Translations under genes and position numbers: made by a program
Shown: positions 5,613 through 52,696 of the stretch, in pieces
Layout of the letters: each line of letters begins with the position of its first letter
Position numbering within the stretch: the stretch's first letter is position 1
Source of the DNA: a bacterium
GTDB lineage: Bacteria > Omnitrophota > Gorgyraeia > Duberdicusellales > 4484-171
Length of the DNA: 64,000 nucleotides
Direction: 5' to 3'
Assembly: GCA_021796115.1 (NCBI GenBank)
Contig: JAJYOP010000001.1
Location: forward strand, 119,755 to 183,754
The notes under the pieces: generated by a model
Seen by the model: only the letters and a program-made list of their open reading frames with translations
Told to the model about the DNA's origin: nothing
The model's database searches: none

Positions 5613-6740
5613 ATGAGAATATTAACCTCAGGAGAATCGCACGGCGAATATATTGCTGCCATAATAGAAGGTTTTCCCAAGGGTGTGCTGATAGAGCAGG
5701 ATTTTATAAATCATGAGTTAAAGCGCAGAATGCAGGGTGTTGGCCGCGGCAAGCGTATGCTTATCGAAGATGATAAGATAGAAATAGTTTCCGGGTTACG
5801 TAATAAAATTTCTCTTGCCAGCCCCATAACCGTTTTATTAAGAAATAAAGATGTAAAAATATTTACGCAAAATAAAGACGAATTACCCGTACTTTCCATA
5901 CCGCGGCCTGCTCATGCTGATTTGGCAGGAGCGCTTAAATACAAAGAAGCCGATATCAGAAACATCCTTGAACGCGCTTCAGCGCGGGAAACCGTCGGCC
6001 GGGTCTGTGCTGGCGCCATATGCAAACAATTCCTCTCAAATTTCGGGATAGATATTGCAAGTTTTACTGTAAGCGTTGGAGAAGCTGCTTCTCATATTAA
6101 ACCCAAAAGTGTTTCTGATATAAAAACAAAAGTAAAGAATTCAAAACTTAATTGTATAGACATAACAATTGAAAAATCGATGATTCGTGAGATAGAAAAA
6201 GTCGGAAGCAATAAAGACAGCCTCGGCGGAGTTACAGAAATTTGGATAGATGGCCTACCGGCCGGTCTTGGCACATTCATGCATTTCGATAAGCGTCTTG
6301 ACGCAAAGCTTGCCGCAAGCCTTATGAGCATCCCCGGAGTAAAAGGTGTCGAAATAGGCCTTGGTTTTGATTACGCAAAGAAAAAGGGTTCTCTCTCGCA
6401 TGACGAAATTTATTATTCAAAAGCAAAAGGTTTTTACCGGGAGACAAACAATTCAGGCGGAATAGAAGGCGGCATCTCAACTGGCGAGCCAATTATTATA
6501 AGAATAGCCATGAAACCCATTGCAACTCTCCGGCAGCCTCTCAATTCGGTAAATATTGCTACAAAGAAAAAAGAAAAAGCAATCGTTGAGCGTTCCGACA
6601 CCTGTGCTATCGCTGCCTGCGGCGTAATTGCTGAAAATATGAGCGCCATAACCATAACCGAAAGTTTTTTAGACAAATTTGGCTGCGATAGCCTTGACGA
6701 GATAAAGGTTAACTATCGGAATTATGTTAGAACGCCCTGA
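5613..6740 (+). CDS. aroC: Chorismate synthase
   Basis: MRILTSGESHG N-terminus, SARETVGRV motif. Confidence 0.93.
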   Translation: MRILTSGESHGEYIAAIIEGFPKGVLIEQDFINHELKRRMQGVGRGKRMLIEDDKIEIVSGLRNKISLASPITVLLRNKDVKIFTQNKDELPVLSIPRPAHADLAGALKYKEADIRNILERASARETVGRVCAGAICKQFLSNFGIDIASFTVSVGEAASHIKPKSVSDIKTKVKNSKLNCIDITIEKSMIREIEKVGSNKDSLGGVTEIWIDGLPAGLGTFMHFDKRLDAKLAASLMSIPGVKGVEIGLGFDYAKKKGSLSHDEIYYSKAKGFYRETNNSGGIEGGISTGEPIIIRIAMKPIATLRQPLNSVNIATKKKEKAIVERSDTCAIAACGVIAENMSAITITESFLDKFGCDSLDEIKVNYRNYVRTP

Positions 6741-7478: not shown

Positions 7479-7537
7479 GCCATAATAAGGGGATGCATAA
7501 ATCAATTATGTTTGACAGCCCCGCTCGTTATACTCGC

Positions 7538-7600
7538 GGGGTAATTCGACTAAATACTTTTTTGACGGGAAGTCTAAAAAAGTATAGTCTCATTAAAGGA
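7538..7600 (+). promoter_or_regulatory. Conserved leader hairpin, copy 1 (GGGGTAATTCGAC - AU-rich stem - GTCTCATT - SD)
   Basis: Stem ATACTTTTTTGAC / GTC(T)AAAAAAGTAT. Homologous copies at 10370-10435 and 52291-52355. Confidence 0.6.
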
Positions 7601-7601
7601 G

Positions 7602-8078
7602 ATGAAAATGAAAAAAATCGCTTTCTTAATGGCGCTCATAATGATCTTCAGTATTTCCTGTGCTAAAAAAGCAGAAAAAAAGGTAGAAGCACCTCTTGAG
7701 TCAGAAACAATTGTTCCAGAAACAACAAATCCTGTCACACTCGAACCGCAGCCTCAAGGCACAACCATGACTACCAAAGAAGGCACATCTGTGGTAACGA
7801 AGGATGCTCTTACGCCTCAAGTGCCGGTTGCTACGGAGACCGCAGGTGCATCGGAGAAACCAACCCCAGAAAATATTCAAACTGCCTTAAAAAACGCTGG
7901 TTTATATACAGGCAATGTTGACGGAAAGATCGGCCCAAAAACAAAAAAAGCAATAGAAGCATTCCAGAAGCAGAACGGTTTAACTGCCGATGGCAAGGTT
8001 GGCCCAAAGACTTGGGATAGACTTAAAAGCTATTTAAGTAAAACAACAGAAGCTGTTCCGGCAGGAATCAAGAACTAA
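7602..8078 (+). CDS. Lipoprotein with C-terminal peptidoglycan-binding (PG_binding_1-like) domain
   Basis: Lipobox FSISC; C-terminal IQTALKNAGLYTGNVDGKIGPKTKKAIEAFQKQNGLTADGKVGPKTW. Confidence 0.75.
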   Translation: MKMKKIAFLMALIMIFSISCAKKAEKKVEAPLESETIVPETTNPVTLEPQPQGTTMTTKEGTSVVTKDALTPQVPVATETAGASEKPTPENIQTALKNAGLYTGNVDGKIGPKTKKAIEAFQKQNGLTADGKVGPKTWDRLKSYLSKTTEAVPAGIKN

Positions 8079-9729: not shown

Positions 9730-9955
9730 CTAATTTGTTTGCGCAGACAATTTATGTTCGCTTCGCTCCATAAATTACAGACCATAAGTTTTCTGCGAAA
9801 CAATCTTTGGCATTTACCTAATAAAATATTAAGGCAGGTGTCAAGTTAATTCGTACTGTGATTTTTTATTCGCCATGCCTGTCCACCAGGACGTCCTGTT
9901 GGGCTGCCCTTCAGGTAGTCTCAGGCTTGAAAAAAATCACATGCTCATTAAAAAA

Positions 9956-10282
9956 ATGAGAACCGTAGCGCTTTTATTTATTTCCAACATTTTTATGACT
10001 TTTGCCTGGTATGGACACCTAAAGTATAAGAATTCTCCTTTATGGATTGCAATATTTGTGAGCTGGCTTATTGCCTTTGTAGAATATTGTTTTCAGGTCC
10101 CGGCAAACCGCATAGGCTATTATGAATACAGCGCCGCCCAGCTTAAAACAATACAGGAAGTTATAACTTTGATAGTTTTTTCGGTATTTTCAGTTTTCTA
10201 TCTTAAAGAAGGTTTAAAATGGAATCATGCGGTAGGCTTCCTGCTTATAATTTTAGCAGTAGTATTTATTTTTAAAAAGTAA
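9956..10282 (+). CDS. DMT-superfamily small membrane protein (DUF486-like)
   Basis: Start moved to MRTVALLFISNIFMTFAWYGHLKYK, the typical N-terminus of this family. About 4 TM helices. Confidence 0.65.
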   Translation: MRTVALLFISNIFMTFAWYGHLKYKNSPLWIAIFVSWLIAFVEYCFQVPANRIGYYEYSAAQLKTIQEVITLIVFSVFSVFYLKEGLKWNHAVGFLLIILAVVFIFKK

Positions 10283-10369
10283 TAATAAGCACATCATTTT
10301 TTCAAGCACGAAGTGTGTAGAAAAAATGATAGTGCGAATTATCCCTTCACTTCGTCCCAAGCAAAGCTT

Positions 10370-10435
10370 GGGATAATTCGACTACACACTTTTTCAGATT
10401 TCCTGTCTGAAAAAGTGTAAGTCTCATTGGGAGGT
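10370..10435 (+). promoter_or_regulatory. Conserved leader hairpin, copy 2
   Basis: GGGATAATTCGAC, perfect 13-bp stem ACACTTTTTCAGA / TCTGAAAAAGTGT, GTCTCATT, GGGAGG Shine-Dalgarno. Confidence 0.6.
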
Positions 10436-10440
10436 GTGTA

Positions 10441-10854
10441 ATGAAAAAAGTCTTATTTTTATTAGCTATTTTTATAATTGTTATCGGTAATTTATATGCC
10501 CAGCAAACAGAGTCTCTTGATGGAAACGGTTGGAAATTACTTAACCGATACAGGGATGGCATGACTATGCGCATGGTTTTAGTGCAGGGTATTATCGCCG
10601 GCGCAGAGGCCATGAATCGCGAGCGCGCCAGAGAAATTTATCCAGGTAGCGATTATAACAAACTTTCCCTGATGATGGATGAGTTCTATAGCGAAGATAA
10701 AAATTTATCAATACCTACACAATATGCTTTATATGTCATTTTTTTAAAAATTAAAAATCACCCCAAAAACGAAATTGATGAAGCAATTAAAAAATTTAGA
10801 AAAGGTTTCCAGCCGCAGTTTTTAGAAATCGATAAAGAAAAAGCAAAAAAATAA
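10441..10854 (+). CDS. Hypothetical secreted protein
   Basis: Signal peptide MKKVLFLLAIFIIVIGNLYA; no family recognised. Confidence 0.55.
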   Translation: MKKVLFLLAIFIIVIGNLYAQQTESLDGNGWKLLNRYRDGMTMRMVLVQGIIAGAEAMNRERAREIYPGSDYNKLSLMMDEFYSEDKNLSIPTQYALYVIFLKIKNHPKNEIDEAIKKFRKGFQPQFLEIDKEKAKK

Positions 10855-12158: not shown

Positions 12159-12182
12159 ATTACTATAAAAAGGAGGGTAGTA

Positions 12183-12548
12183 ATGAGAAATAAAAAAGGT
12201 TTTACGCTTATCGAATTAGTCATGGTTATTGTTATCCTGGGTATTTTGGCAGTAGTGGCCGCACCAAAGTATTTTAACCTTTCAGCATCCGCCAACCAGG
12301 CAGCAGAACAGGGTGTAGTGGGCGGAGTAAGGTCCGGTATCTCGAGTTATTTTGCGCAGAATAAAGCTTATCCTCTAACCCTGGACGCAGCTCTACCTGT
12401 TGCCTGTAGTACAGCAAACGCATGTTTTACAAACGTTCTCTCGCAGGGCGGTATCACTTCCCAATGGACAAAGGTTAGTAATACCCTTTATAGAGGGCCG
12501 ACTGGTACATCATACACTTATACTGTCGCAGATGGCTCGTTTCAATAA
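12183..12548 (+). CDS. Type IV pilin (paralog 1, canonical Gly at -1)
   Basis: Prepilin leader MRNKKG|FTLIELVMVIVILGILA with Glu+5; Cys-x6-Cys pair in the C-terminal part. Confidence 0.85.
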   Translation: MRNKKGFTLIELVMVIVILGILAVVAAPKYFNLSASANQAAEQGVVGGVRSGISSYFAQNKAYPLTLDAALPVACSTANACFTNVLSQGGITSQWTKVSNTLYRGPTGTSYTYTVADGSFQ

Positions 12549-43030: not shown

Positions 43031-43101
43031 GCGGGCGTAGTTCAATGGCAGAACACTAGCCTTCCAAGCTGGATATGTCGGTTCGATCCCGATCGCCCGC
43101 T
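43031..43101 (+). tRNA. tRNA-Gly (TCC)
   Basis: Acceptor GCGGGCG/CGCCCGC, anticodon loop CTTCCAA, T-loop TTCGATC. Confidence 0.88.
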
Positions 43102-43199
43102 TACTGAGACTTGCAATCTTTCAGACAGGAAGTCTGAAAAATTGCCTAGTCGAAATACCCCCGAGCGACCGAAGGGAGCGAGTGGGGTAATAAATAAAC

Positions 43200-44204
43200 A
43201 TGAAACAAAAGATTTCCATACTCGGTGCCGGCGGTTGGGGGACTACTTTAGCCGTTGTTCTTTCCGGTAAAAAAAATCTAGAGACAACATTATGGTCGGC
43301 ATTTCCCGAACAAGTCGAGCAAATTATTAAAGAAAGAGAAAACAAAGATTTTCTTCCTTCCGTAAAAATACCAAAAAACTTGAAAATTACCTCTAGCCTC
43401 AAATCAGTGCTGTCTGCAAATATAATTATTTTAGCAATACCTGCCGAACATCTGCGAAGCTGTCTTGTTAATATTAATGTGGCAGGAGTTGATTTTAAAA
43501 ACAAGCTTTTTTTAAGTGTGATTAAAGGAATAGAAATAAAAAGCCTGAAGCGACCGAGCGAAATATTACACGAAATGCTTAATTTACCTTATGAACAGAT
43601 AGTAGTTCTCTCCGGCCCGACAATTGCTAAAGAGGTAGCGCAAGGTATACCTGCAGTTGCAACGGTTGCCTCCAATTCGTACGCCAACGCACAAAAAATC
43701 CAAAAAATATTCGAATCAACAAATCTTCGGCTTTATACCCATAAAGATATGATTGGTATAGAAACAGCCGGCGCGCTAAAAAATATTATCGCTATTGCCT
43801 GCGGTATTTCCGATGGCCTTGGTTTTGGAACAAATACTAAATCAGCAATAATTTGCCGCGGTTTAAAAGAGATGATGCGTTTCGGCAGAGCTCTGCATAT
43901 AAACGAATCAGCATTTTTAGGGATAAGCGGAATAGGGGATTTATGCACAACATGTTTTTCTAACTTCTCAAGAAATAGATTTATCGGCAAACAAATTGCT
44001 TCAGGCAAAGCACTCAATGAAGTATTAAAAAATATGAAAATGGTTGCTGAAGGCGTGACGACGGTGAAGTCCGTTTATAACATAACTAAAAAATATAAAA
44101 TAGATATGCCGATAACTAAAGAGATATATCTTATTCTTTATAAAAATAAATCTCCCAAAATAGCAGTTAAGGATTTGATGGGCCGCCCATTGAAGGATGA
44201 ATAG
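43200..44204 (+). CDS. gpsA: NAD(P)H-dependent glycerol-3-phosphate dehydrogenase
   Basis: ISILGAGGWGTTLA, GALKNIIAIA and GDLxxTC motifs. Confidence 0.92.
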   Translation: MKQKISILGAGGWGTTLAVVLSGKKNLETTLWSAFPEQVEQIIKERENKDFLPSVKIPKNLKITSSLKSVLSANIIILAIPAEHLRSCLVNINVAGVDFKNKLFLSVIKGIEIKSLKRPSEILHEMLNLPYEQIVVLSGPTIAKEVAQGIPAVATVASNSYANAQKIQKIFESTNLRLYTHKDMIGIETAGALKNIIAIACGISDGLGFGTNTKSAIICRGLKEMMRFGRALHINESAFLGISGIGDLCTTCFSNFSRNRFIGKQIASGKALNEVLKNMKMVAEGVTTVKSVYNITKKYKIDMPITKEIYLILYKNKSPKIAVKDLMGRPLKDE

Positions 44205-51864: not shown

Positions 51865-51928
51865 ATTTATTACTCCTTTTATACACAGATAGTCAGAGAT
51901 GTGGAAGCGGATAATCACAGATGATTTT

Positions 51929-51968
51929 ATCTGTGATTATCTGTGATCTTTATCTGTGGCCATCTGTG
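51929..51968 (+). promoter_or_regulatory. ATCTGTG box array (4 exact boxes)
   Basis: Exact boxes at 51929, 51939, 51952 and 51962. Inverted CACAGAT boxes lie at 51884 and 51916. The perfect hairpin ATAATCACAGAT-GATTTT-ATCTGTGATTAT spans 51911-51940. Confidence 0.6.
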
Positions 51969-52065: not shown

Positions 52066-52097
52066 AAATGACAAACCAGTTCTTTAAAATTTATACG

Positions 52098-52176
52098 AAA
52101 AAAGCTAACCTTGGGAAATCAGGGGGCGCAAAGCTTAAAGAGCCTAAAGCCATAAGGCTATGGTAGTCAGCTGCCG
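52098..52176 (+). promoter_or_regulatory. GEMM-I-like cyclic-dinucleotide riboswitch aptamer, copy 2 (compact)
   Basis: AAAAGCTAACCTTGGGAAATCAGGGGGCGCAAAGCTTAAAGAGCCTAAAGCCATAAGGCTATGGTAGTCAGCTGCCG aligns by eye with the Vibrio cholerae Vc2 core. Confidence 0.75.
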
Positions 52177-52195
52177 TTATTTTATTTGAAAGGTT

Positions 52196-52226
52196 AAACC
52201 CATAGCTTGTAGCTATGGGTTTTTTA
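52196..52226 (+). terminator. Intrinsic terminator (riboswitch expression platform)
   Basis: AAACCCATAGC-loop-GCTATGGGTTT followed by a T-run. Confidence 0.85.
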
Positions 52227-52290
52227 TTGAAAACCCCACTCGCAATTCGACCAGGTCTTTTTGCAAAGCAAAAAGACAGTCTCATTGCTC

Positions 52291-52355
52291 GGGGGTAATT
52301 CGCACTTGTCTTTTTTCAGACAGGAGTCTGAAAAAAGACTGTGCTCATTAGGAGG
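52291..52355 (+). promoter_or_regulatory. Conserved leader hairpin, copy 3
   Basis: GGGGGTAATTCGCAC, perfect 13-bp stem GTCTTTTTTCAGA / TCTGAAAAAAGAC, GTGCTCATT, AGGAGG Shine-Dalgarno. A related module (AATTCGAC..GTCTCATT) lies at 52244-52288. Confidence 0.6.
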
Positions 52356-52360
52356 TGGCT

Positions 52361-52696
52361 ATGTTAAGGAAAGCCGTGGGTTTACTTATTGTGTGTTTAA
52401 TGGTTATGTCAGTGAGCGCATTTGCCGAAGACAATAATGCGCTTGCTAAATTGGGCAGAGGGTTAACCAATGCCGTGACAGGAGTAGTAGAAATTCCAAA
52501 GCAAATTTATCTTGTTTCGCAGGAGAAAGAACCCATCACAGGCATTACTTATGGCACAGCCAAAGGTATATGCTATGGGTTAATGCGTACGGCAGCCGGA
52601 GTTTATGACACCCTTGCTTTCGCAATCCCTCCTTATGATAAACCGGTTATGGAGCCTGCATTTGTGTTTGAAGGATGGCAGGCGGAGAAAAAGTAA
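52361..52696 (+). CDS. Small secreted protein resembling the exosortase-system-associated TIGR04073 family
   Basis: Start moved to the ATG 5 nt after the Shine-Dalgarno. Signal peptide; KLGRGLTNAVTGVVEIPKQIY, GTAKGICYGLMRTAAGVYDTLAF, EPAFVF. Confidence 0.6.
   Translation: MLRKAVGLLIVCLMVMSVSAFAEDNNALAKLGRGLTNAVTGVVEIPKQIYLVSQEKEPITGITYGTAKGICYGLMRTAAGVYDTLAFAIPPYDKPVMEPAFVFEGWQAEKK

Follow-up and report, generated by a model that had tools for sequence, protein, structure and literature searches.

The hairpin leaders of three genes in a 64,000-nucleotide stretch of Omnitrophota DNA (GenBank assembly GCA_021796115.1, contig JAJYOP010000001.1, positions 119,755 to 183,754 of the forward strand; the whole stretch is called the window here) are probably copies of a mosaic palindromic intergenic repeat. 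This repeat is of a kind with the repetitive extragenic palindromes and bacterial interspersed mosaic elements (REP/BIME), REPINs, or MITEs (miniature inverted-repeat transposable elements), and is co-transcribed as a self-contained hairpin. The leaders lie at 7538-7600, 10370-10435, and 52291-52355, with a further module at 52244-52288, and an earlier note on this sequence had proposed them as a regulatory leader tied to genes for small secreted proteins. Copies are scattered between genes, stand in both orientations, and are missing before the same genes in relatives, which argues for an insertional repeat rather than a dedicated regulator. Besides being repeated and occurring in either orientation, the family forms mosaic arrangements, has covarying stems, is polymorphic for presence and absence, and abuts Shine-Dalgarno (SD) sequences that belong to the host.

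The layout described in the earlier note holds in sequence, fold, and gene context: a GC hairpin that closes on GGGR is succeeded by (T)AATTCG(A)C, an AU-rich stem with a T-run in its 5' arm and an A-run in its 3' arm, (A/G)GT(C/G)CTCATT, a GGAG-type SD, and ATG. A covariance model (CM R1) built from 44 diverse copies and run unfiltered on the window finds six copies of the hairpin unit, which we call module B. Copy 1 (7537-7598, plus strand; 56.5 bits, E 1.2e-11) has the form AATTCGACTA-hairpin-AGTCTCATT; immediately 5' of it folds a companion GC hairpin, "hairpin-1" (CCCCGC..GCGGGG; 7519-7541, plus strand), a module of a type that also precedes most copies in other genomes. Copy 1 abuts the SD GGAG (7598-7601) of a PG_binding_1 gene (Pfam assignment; ATG at 7608), and copy 2 (10369-10432, plus strand; 69.7 bits) abuts the SD GGAGG (10430-10434) of a gene for a 137-amino-acid signal-peptide protein (ATG at 10441). 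At 52 kb, copy 3a, which has a short hairpin (52238-52290, plus strand; 32.8 bits, and seen in the fold), is nested in a CCCC..GGGG helix 3' of a riboswitch terminator, and copy 3b, a GCAC/GUGC variant (52291-52353, plus strand; 43.9 bits), abuts the SD AGGAGG (52350-52355) of a TIGR04073-family gene (so called from the NCBI names of its homologues; ATG at 52361). The earlier note had placed its third leader downstream of a riboswitch terminator with a related module beside it, and sequence, Rfam, and a terminator scan agree.

The remaining two copies are on the minus strand and were absent from the earlier list. One, again a GCAC/GUGC variant (10280-10346; 32.2 bits, E 1.7e-05), overlaps with its CTTATT end the stop codon of the plus-strand gene at 9875-10282 and forms with copy 2 an inverted doublet around a small hairpin (CCCAAGC AAA GCTTGGG; 10356-10372, plus strand, from the fold between the doublet arms). 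The other (43099-43162; 56.5 bits) adjoins the 3' end of a tRNA gene (43031-43101) and is followed by its own hairpin-1 and then by gpsA (plus strand, ATG at 43200), so that it is antisense to both neighbors. From their minus-strand sites, neither copy can lead a secreted-protein gene.

In related genomes the genes remain and the element does not. We compared the 52-kb locus through TIGR04073-family homologues (74-81% protein identity) and the 7.5-kb and 10.4-kb loci through aroC-syntenic loci (76-88% identity); L-numbers (L001-L140 style) are labels of compared loci from other genomes or contigs. At 52 kb the order of recJ, L28, the TIGR04073-family gene, a TPR gene, and a helicase gene is kept, as are the riboswitch, terminator, SD, and start codon, but 52244-52349 is missing in all four relatives (L131, L133, L134, and L136), where the slot between riboswitch and SD holds an unrelated CACAGAT..ATCTGTG palindrome or almost nothing. 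L131 has a GGCU/AGCC-variant copy with an inverted companion module by its L28 gene (1032-1097), a place where the window and the other relatives have none. Copy 1 is absent at the orthologous PG-binding site in L137-L140, and copy 2 is absent upstream of the orthologous 137-amino-acid gene in L138, L139, and L140; L140 in turn has a copy before its second PG-binding gene, where the window has none. The pilD-aroC spacer contains copies in L138 and L140 and is only 14 nucleotides long in the window and L137; one L140 copy that the window lacks is at 7974-8037. In these comparisons, empty sites do not differ from filled ones in the SD or its spacer, so that the SD belongs to the host and the element lands immediately upstream of a pre-existing SD. 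The CACAGAT..ATCTGTG palindrome is a second, unrelated repeat, which occupies the slot of copies 3a and 3b in L133 and L134 and also occurs in the window at 51907-51947, by the L28 gene.

Copies beyond the window came mostly from an exact-pattern scan of one genome per GTDB species, which gave at least 114 loci; among the 123 matches listed, about 120 are genuine, all but L060, L094, and L111 with the full architecture including the preceding GC hairpin. The earlier note had proposed a covariance model and a wider search, and its expectation was borne out in part: further copies and covariation were found, but the copies are not confined to leaders and are missing at orthologous ones. Most of the matches listed come from metagenome-assembled genomes (MAGs) of Omnitrophota, some of them labelled "Planctomycetia." At least 10 Bacteroidota MAGs are among the matches listed, one of which (CAWBCI01) alone has at least 11 near-identical copies on long contigs, and the other hosts listed are Ignavibacteriae, Syntrophales/Smithella, two "Clostridia" MAGs, and Stahlbacteria. 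SD-like motifs precede 0-3% of the open reading frames (ORFs) in Bacteroidota-labelled loci versus 26-48% elsewhere, and this contrast indicates that the spread across phyla is not a binning artifact.

These copies are essentially always intergenic. Among the matches listed, the flanking genes are both on the same strand as the copy in 36 cases and both on the opposite strand in 37; in Omnitrophota-like genomes, again among the matches listed, the downstream gene is on the same strand in 41 copies and on the opposite strand in 30. The genes directly downstream (those for L35, L31, L21, L9, L25, HU, RecA, EF-P, PhoU, ExbB/ExbD, ParA, glycogen synthase, and others) are no secretion-related set. 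Copies in Bacteroidota have no SD context, and six Syntrophales/Smithella MAGs (L025, L043, L074, L080, L099, and L103) have an antisense copy in the xerC-hslV spacer, often with degenerate tandem partners, in which the stems vary among MAGs and the pairing is kept.

The arrangements of the modules are those of a mosaic. Module B is usually accompanied by a second, GC-rich hairpin module at its AATT side and takes the form of singlets, head-to-tail tandems, or inverted doublets with the CATT ends outermost. Head-to-tail tandems are found in L006, L077, L049, and at 3a/3b in the window, and inverted doublets at 10280/10369 in the window, at two sites in L138, and at one in L005; truncated and collapsed copies also exist. 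In L061 (1112-1529, minus strand), four tandem copies with a 118-bp period, each unit consisting of hairpin-1, module B, and a 33-nucleotide spacer, follow the terminator of a porin-like gene, and the companion hairpin module occurs there in inverted orientation as well. The arrays in L006, L077, and L049 resemble that of L061, with truncated right flanks. Elsewhere in L061 (2800-5100), a tRNA gene is followed by two duplicated blocks, made up of a companion hairpin, a repeat copy, and an inverted companion module, and by a gene on the opposite strand for a 612-amino-acid large serine recombinase; the whole looks like an integrated element whose att-like duplications contain the repeat. In an independent assembly of the same organism (L130; Logan SRR13170412), the contig breaks 89 nucleotides upstream of the TIGR04073 gene, inside the tandem modules, as expected of a repeat.

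The three leaders fold in the way that the earlier note proposed. An upstream GC hairpin, of whose helix the GGGR is the 3' side as the earlier note had it, is followed by a long hairpin in which AAU/AUU and GAC(U)/(A)GUC at the base (GCAC/GUGC in 3b) close an upper stem of 13-14 bp; the lower stem reaches past the flanks described in that note as (G)AUCAAU/AUUGAU. The minimum free energies come to -28.9, -39.3, and -53.2 kcal/mol; relative to shuffled sequences, the z-scores range from -3.9 to -7.1. The core is a strand-asymmetric imperfect palindrome, (G)ATCAAT-TC-G NNNN (TA) [10-20 bp stem] (A) NNNN C-TC-ATTGAT, in which the stem is usually a T-run/A-run. Its internal loop is asymmetric, with UC/UC on the given strand and tandem G.A/A.G on the other, and this loop (TC/TC) is conserved across phyla.

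That the stems differ and stay paired, another observation of the earlier note, is upheld at larger scale. The model gives 139 matches in 0.74 Mb of collected loci (134 distinct rows), in which 88.5% of paired cells are pairable versus 73.8% in shuffles, 17 of 21 pairs show double-sided changes, and the covariation score is 0.311, versus 0.088 for shuffles and at most 0.065 for slid partners. All four Watson-Crick types are represented in the four pairs that form the base of the upper stem, and the 4-bp P2 helix occurs as GACU/AGUC, GCAC/GUGC, GGCU/AGCC, and CAGA/UCUG. Since the alignment was fitted to the model and its rows are related repeats, the covariation alone does not show RNA function. 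G.U pairs exceed A.C on the given strand (64 versus 36), but the ratio is 25:15 in sense copies and 23:12 in antisense copies (Fisher p = 0.81); as it does not flip with the direction of host transcription, the asymmetry is a property of the element and not of the mRNA. The apical loops are sometimes inverted relative to the flanks (CTTCG in 32 copies versus CGAAG in 3; AGGAA in 10 versus TTCCT in 3).

These features suggest how the leaders may have arisen. Copies are gained and lost quickly in the intergenic DNA of Omnitrophota, and one that landed in the gap separating a stop codon or terminator from the following SD would be transcribed within the mRNA, where it would fold as a self-contained hairpin and leave the pre-existing SD free. 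At the three loci in the window the element would thus be a passenger, either in the 5' untranslated region (UTR) or in RNA between cistrons; any effect on mRNA stability or processing would be generic at most, and it would not be a gene-specific switch. We infer that a Y1/HUH-type (RAYT/IS200-like) or other enzyme mobilizes copies in trans by way of a hairpin intermediate of single-stranded DNA, and any effect on expression is likewise inferred. The element is very probably inside the mRNA leader at all three loci; its place at 52 kb is after the riboswitch terminator and before the SD. There, a promoter between element and SD would bypass the riboswitch, and the modules must lie inside the riboswitch-controlled transcript. 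An element that carries its own promoter was rejected, as no sigma-70-like site lies between element and SD and the -10-like strings in hairpin-1 loops are inconsistent among copies; an intrinsic terminator was rejected likewise, as the hairpin is followed by AGUCUCAUU(GA), or by UAGUCGAAUU on the other strand, with no U-tract, and is not called by the terminator scan. A generic RNA-level effect, be it on stability, RNase III processing, or insulation of the SD, is possible, and by analogy with Correia or BOX repeats the element may have a secondary effect on expression.

Among known systems, the REP/BIME/REPIN sequences of Proteobacteria, which are mobilized by RAYT/TnpA-REP Y1 transposases, resemble module B in several ways: they are imperfect palindromes of 21-65 nucleotides with conserved foot nucleotides and mismatches (PMC2817692, PMC3116915, PMC3479197), they are strictly extragenic, numerous, and present in both orientations, and they form mosaics with other motifs, inverted doublets (as in REPINs), and co-transcribed mRNA hairpins. 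Unlike them, module B has no GTAG/GGAG-type 5' tetranucleotide, has an AU-rich rather than a GC-rich stem, is polar and flush against the SD, and has a core that spans several phyla, whereas REP classes are normally lineage-specific; nor was a RAYT gene found beside any module B copy in the collected loci. The pneumococcal BOX elements (boxA-boxB(n)-boxC) and the Correia elements of Neisseria are likewise modular or mosaic with a variable number of internal modules, lie between genes and often just upstream of starts, form stable RNA hairpins, and vary in presence among strains, and they are able to change the expression of genes and are open to cleavage by RNase III (PMC3049150, PMC2649163). 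Each is confined to one genus, however, and Correia elements have 26-bp terminal inverted repeats, a TA duplication, and the capacity to create promoters, whereas neither a duplication nor a promoter was detected for module B. As in MITEs, there is insertion polymorphism between related genomes. The doublets of module B have inverted termini, the CATT ends; no autonomous insertion sequence (IS) partner with matching terminal inverted repeats was identified in the collected loci.

A link to IS200 comes from a long form of the repeat. In Bacteroidales, some Omnitrophota, and other MAGs, module B makes up the 3' third of a ~190-nucleotide element with sharp boundaries, the first 37 nucleotides of which are 92% identical (as reverse complement) to IS200-type right ends that directly follow tnpA in Pantoea, Edwardsiella, Pseudanabaena, and Megaera plasmids. 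Its mini-hairpin and spacer resemble an IS200 left-end hairpin and the 3' end of tnpA, and the ~90-nucleotide IS200-type part also occurs solo (L010:1690-1775). On the strength of the right-end match, the left-end-like hairpin, and the solo part, the long form looks like an IS200-derived non-autonomous element fused to hairpin-1 and module B. The 90-nucleotide part, consisting of the left-end-like hairpin, the tnpA 3' remnant, and the right-end hairpin ATACCCCGCTGCTTGCGGCGGGGTAGTTTATT, makes up with the repeat a ~190-nucleotide composite with at least 11 near-identical copies in one MAG (CAWBCI01 Bacteroidales; L002, L003, L010, L022, and others), and a truncated copy of the composite lies at L010:7640-7775. 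Like module B, the ends of IS200/IS605 elements and of their non-autonomous derivatives (PATEs) have strand-specific subterminal hairpins flanked by conserved nucleotides and lack classical terminal repeats, and the fusion to an IS200-type remnant adds to the likeness. In contrast, the LE/RE (left-end/right-end) hairpin of IS200 (CCCCGC..GCGGGG) differs from module B, for which no conserved target tetranucleotide was established. Since Bacteroidetes and other phyla are reported to have Y1/HUH transposases together with hairpin repeats of the REP-like sort (PMC6006769), such enzymes are the leading candidate class for mobilization, by analogy only.

Several results weigh against an insertional repeat. 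The search for a mobilizing enzyme gave none: clustering of 708 neighboring ORFs revealed no recurrent transposase or RAYT gene, and tblastn with IS200 TnpA found no genuine match in ~1 Mb of collected loci (one match, in L071, was spurious and inside an acyl-CoA dehydrogenase gene). The right-end match of the long form had raised the idea that module B is an IS200/IS605 left end, but the model has no match in 80 IS200 tnpA loci from metagenomes. The compared genomes are too diverged for junctions to be read, and neither a target-site duplication nor the exact boundary between empty and filled sequence was defined in them. Within the organism there is no insertion polymorphism, as a second assembly of it is arranged identically. 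The tRNA-gpsA copy (window 43031-43200) recurs at the same position and orientation in L016:3421-3567, where GpsA is 65% identical, so that some insertions are old or the site is a hot spot. An identical 8+9-nucleotide core in phyla that differ even in SD usage implies long persistence or retention, and the exact-pattern recruitment biases the sample: because most alignment rows were recruited by the exact flank pattern, the invariance of the flanks and the T-run are partly imposed by the search. Lastly, placement is polar. Among the matches listed, the CATT end is 0-3 nucleotides from an SD and start codon in 27-29 of 79 Omnitrophota-like copies, and on the other side only 7 of the 79 have a gene start within 160 nucleotides; this calls for target-site choice or selection for RNA function. 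In 7 more of these 79 copies the CATT end lies at most 25 nucleotides from a convergent stop codon. The mobile unit could truly terminate at the CATT end, as it does in the inverted doublets; intergenic regions could be so short that the gap from stop codon to SD is the sole tolerated site; and the choice of target site, or selection that favors a hairpin just 5' of the SD, could contribute as well.

This polarity speaks for the alternative that the element is a generic functional 5'-UTR RNA module, selected directly upstream of SDs and copied to many, often highly expressed, genes, which we consider unlikely but worth weighing. Such a module might stabilize the mRNA against RNase J, E, or Y, serve as an RNase III site like those between the cistrons of phage T7, or insulate the SD, and copies elsewhere would be decaying or secondary. 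Beyond the SD-flush CATT ends, this explanation would account for the many highly expressed downstream genes (L35, L31, L21, L9, L25, HU, EF-P, and RecA), the modest sense-strand excess of G.U over A.C, the common cUUCGg-like apical loops, and a viral contig (L126) in which two copies directly precede ATG. The long (>20 bp) interrupted helix resembles RNase III substrates. Phage T7-type RNase III hairpins and 5' stabilizer stem-loops, such as that of the ompA leader, are also long interrupted helices that have a small symmetric internal loop and lie just upstream of the ribosome-binding site of the next gene; module B has no sequence similarity to them, however, many of its copies are antisense or far from gene starts, and a shared role is only putative. 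The context of the family speaks against a 5'-UTR module more broadly, since among the matches listed an antisense orientation or a site distant from gene starts is found for ~40% of Omnitrophota-like copies and for most of those in other phyla, copies of Bacteroidota are without any SD context, and orthologous genes in close relatives do without the element. The G.U excess, too, has the same ratio in antisense-transcribed copies.

We hold out a modest chance, well below even, that the element is a cross-phylum class of strand-specific hairpin repeat not described before, which either homes to the position immediately 5' of SDs (by a single-strand, HUH/Y1-like mobilization system with SD-adjacent targets) or has been domesticated in Omnitrophota as a portable 5'-UTR module that sets the mRNA 5' ends or stability of highly expressed genes.

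It is quite improbable that the hairpin is a DNA-level site, in which a cruciform or hairpin is bound by an architectural or replication/recombination protein (e.g., IHF, gyrase, or a Xer-like protein) and intergenic position reflects chromosome organization. Strictly intergenic copies in both orientations, the strand-asymmetric internal loop conserved across phyla, and the conserved xerC-hslV spacer copies in six Syntrophales MAGs would fit such a site, and REP/BIME elements do bind IHF, gyrase, and Pol I (PMC2817692). The inner stem sequence, however, is free to vary if paired, as would be expected of a folded single strand more than of a binding site in duplex DNA; copies are gained and lost rapidly between relatives, and no associated protein was identified.

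The reading of the earlier note itself, a gene-specific leader for small secreted or envelope proteins that possibly binds a CsrA-type protein at GGA loops, is scarcely tenable, although the three plus-strand leaders do precede signal-peptide genes, the hairpin covaries, and GGA is present in two of the three loops as described. The tie to secreted-protein genes gives way on the absence of the element from orthologous leaders, its mixed orientations, the minus-strand copies of the window that have no downstream gene, and downstream genes that are functionally unrelated across genomes (ribosomal-protein, recA, efp, and HU genes). The CsrA idea fails because only 15 of 128 copies (12%) have GGA in their apical region and loops are sometimes flipped. 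Tblastn with E. coli CsrA had no match in the window or the collected loci, which are a small fraction of any genome.

An insertional, REP-like repeat therefore remains our preferred explanation, and the family appears to be undescribed in Rfam, in phage and plasmid collections, and in the full-text literature. Rfam finds only tRNAs and the c-di-GMP-I riboswitch in the window, and searches at gathering and permissive thresholds with the window, the three loci, and one long-form copy gave no family and noise far below thresholds, in line with the earlier statement that the motif matches no known family. Full-text searches on the flank sequences and on Omnitrophota repeats returned nothing relevant. 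A phage origin was rejected, as a pattern scan of IMG/VR gave 14 loci with only L126 genuine, and blastn against INPHARED gave no match. L126 (IMG/VR UViG_3300009566_000070) is the only viral contig with genuine copies (1152-1203 and 5866-5918); these lack the T-run/A-run, and ATG follows them directly, without an SD. Readings as omega-RNA, CRISPR, or attC were also set aside, as no nuclease or integrase is associated with the element, the tandem arrays lack unique spacers, and there are no R'/R'' cores.

Two other features of the window touch the element. The c-di-GMP-I riboswitch and its intrinsic terminator (52093-52222, plus strand; aptamer at 52093-52178, Rfam RF01051, 65.5 bits; terminator at 52196-52222) are context and no part of the repeat; they control the TIGR04073-family (exosortase-associated) gene, and 3a and 3b sit within the regulated transcript. 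A loose pattern, AATTCG..CTCATT, has six matches in the window versus 0.69 expected, four of which are the copies named in the earlier note and two of which fall in pilin coding sequence. The latter, minus-strand matches at 12182 and 16716, are not copies but coding sequence of the pilin N-terminus (MRNKKGFTLIEL). Several type IV pilin-like genes (window 12183-12548 and ~16716) have this N-terminus in common; read on the minus strand, the coding sequence of these genes mimics the flank pattern.

For annotation, these results remove a false candidate riboregulator, and they carry a warning that hairpins with "compensatory" changes before several genes of one genome can be repeat copies, which a test of presence and absence at orthologous genes separates from regulators. 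They also document an abundant repeat family in the Omnitrophota, a poorly studied phylum with small genomes. That Omnitrophota have the core in common with Bacteroidota, Syntrophales, and other inhabitants of similar anoxic environments suggests the horizontal spread of a tiny element or of the enzyme that mobilizes it, and its landing flush against SDs could affect both gene expression and the places where assemblies of these MAGs break.

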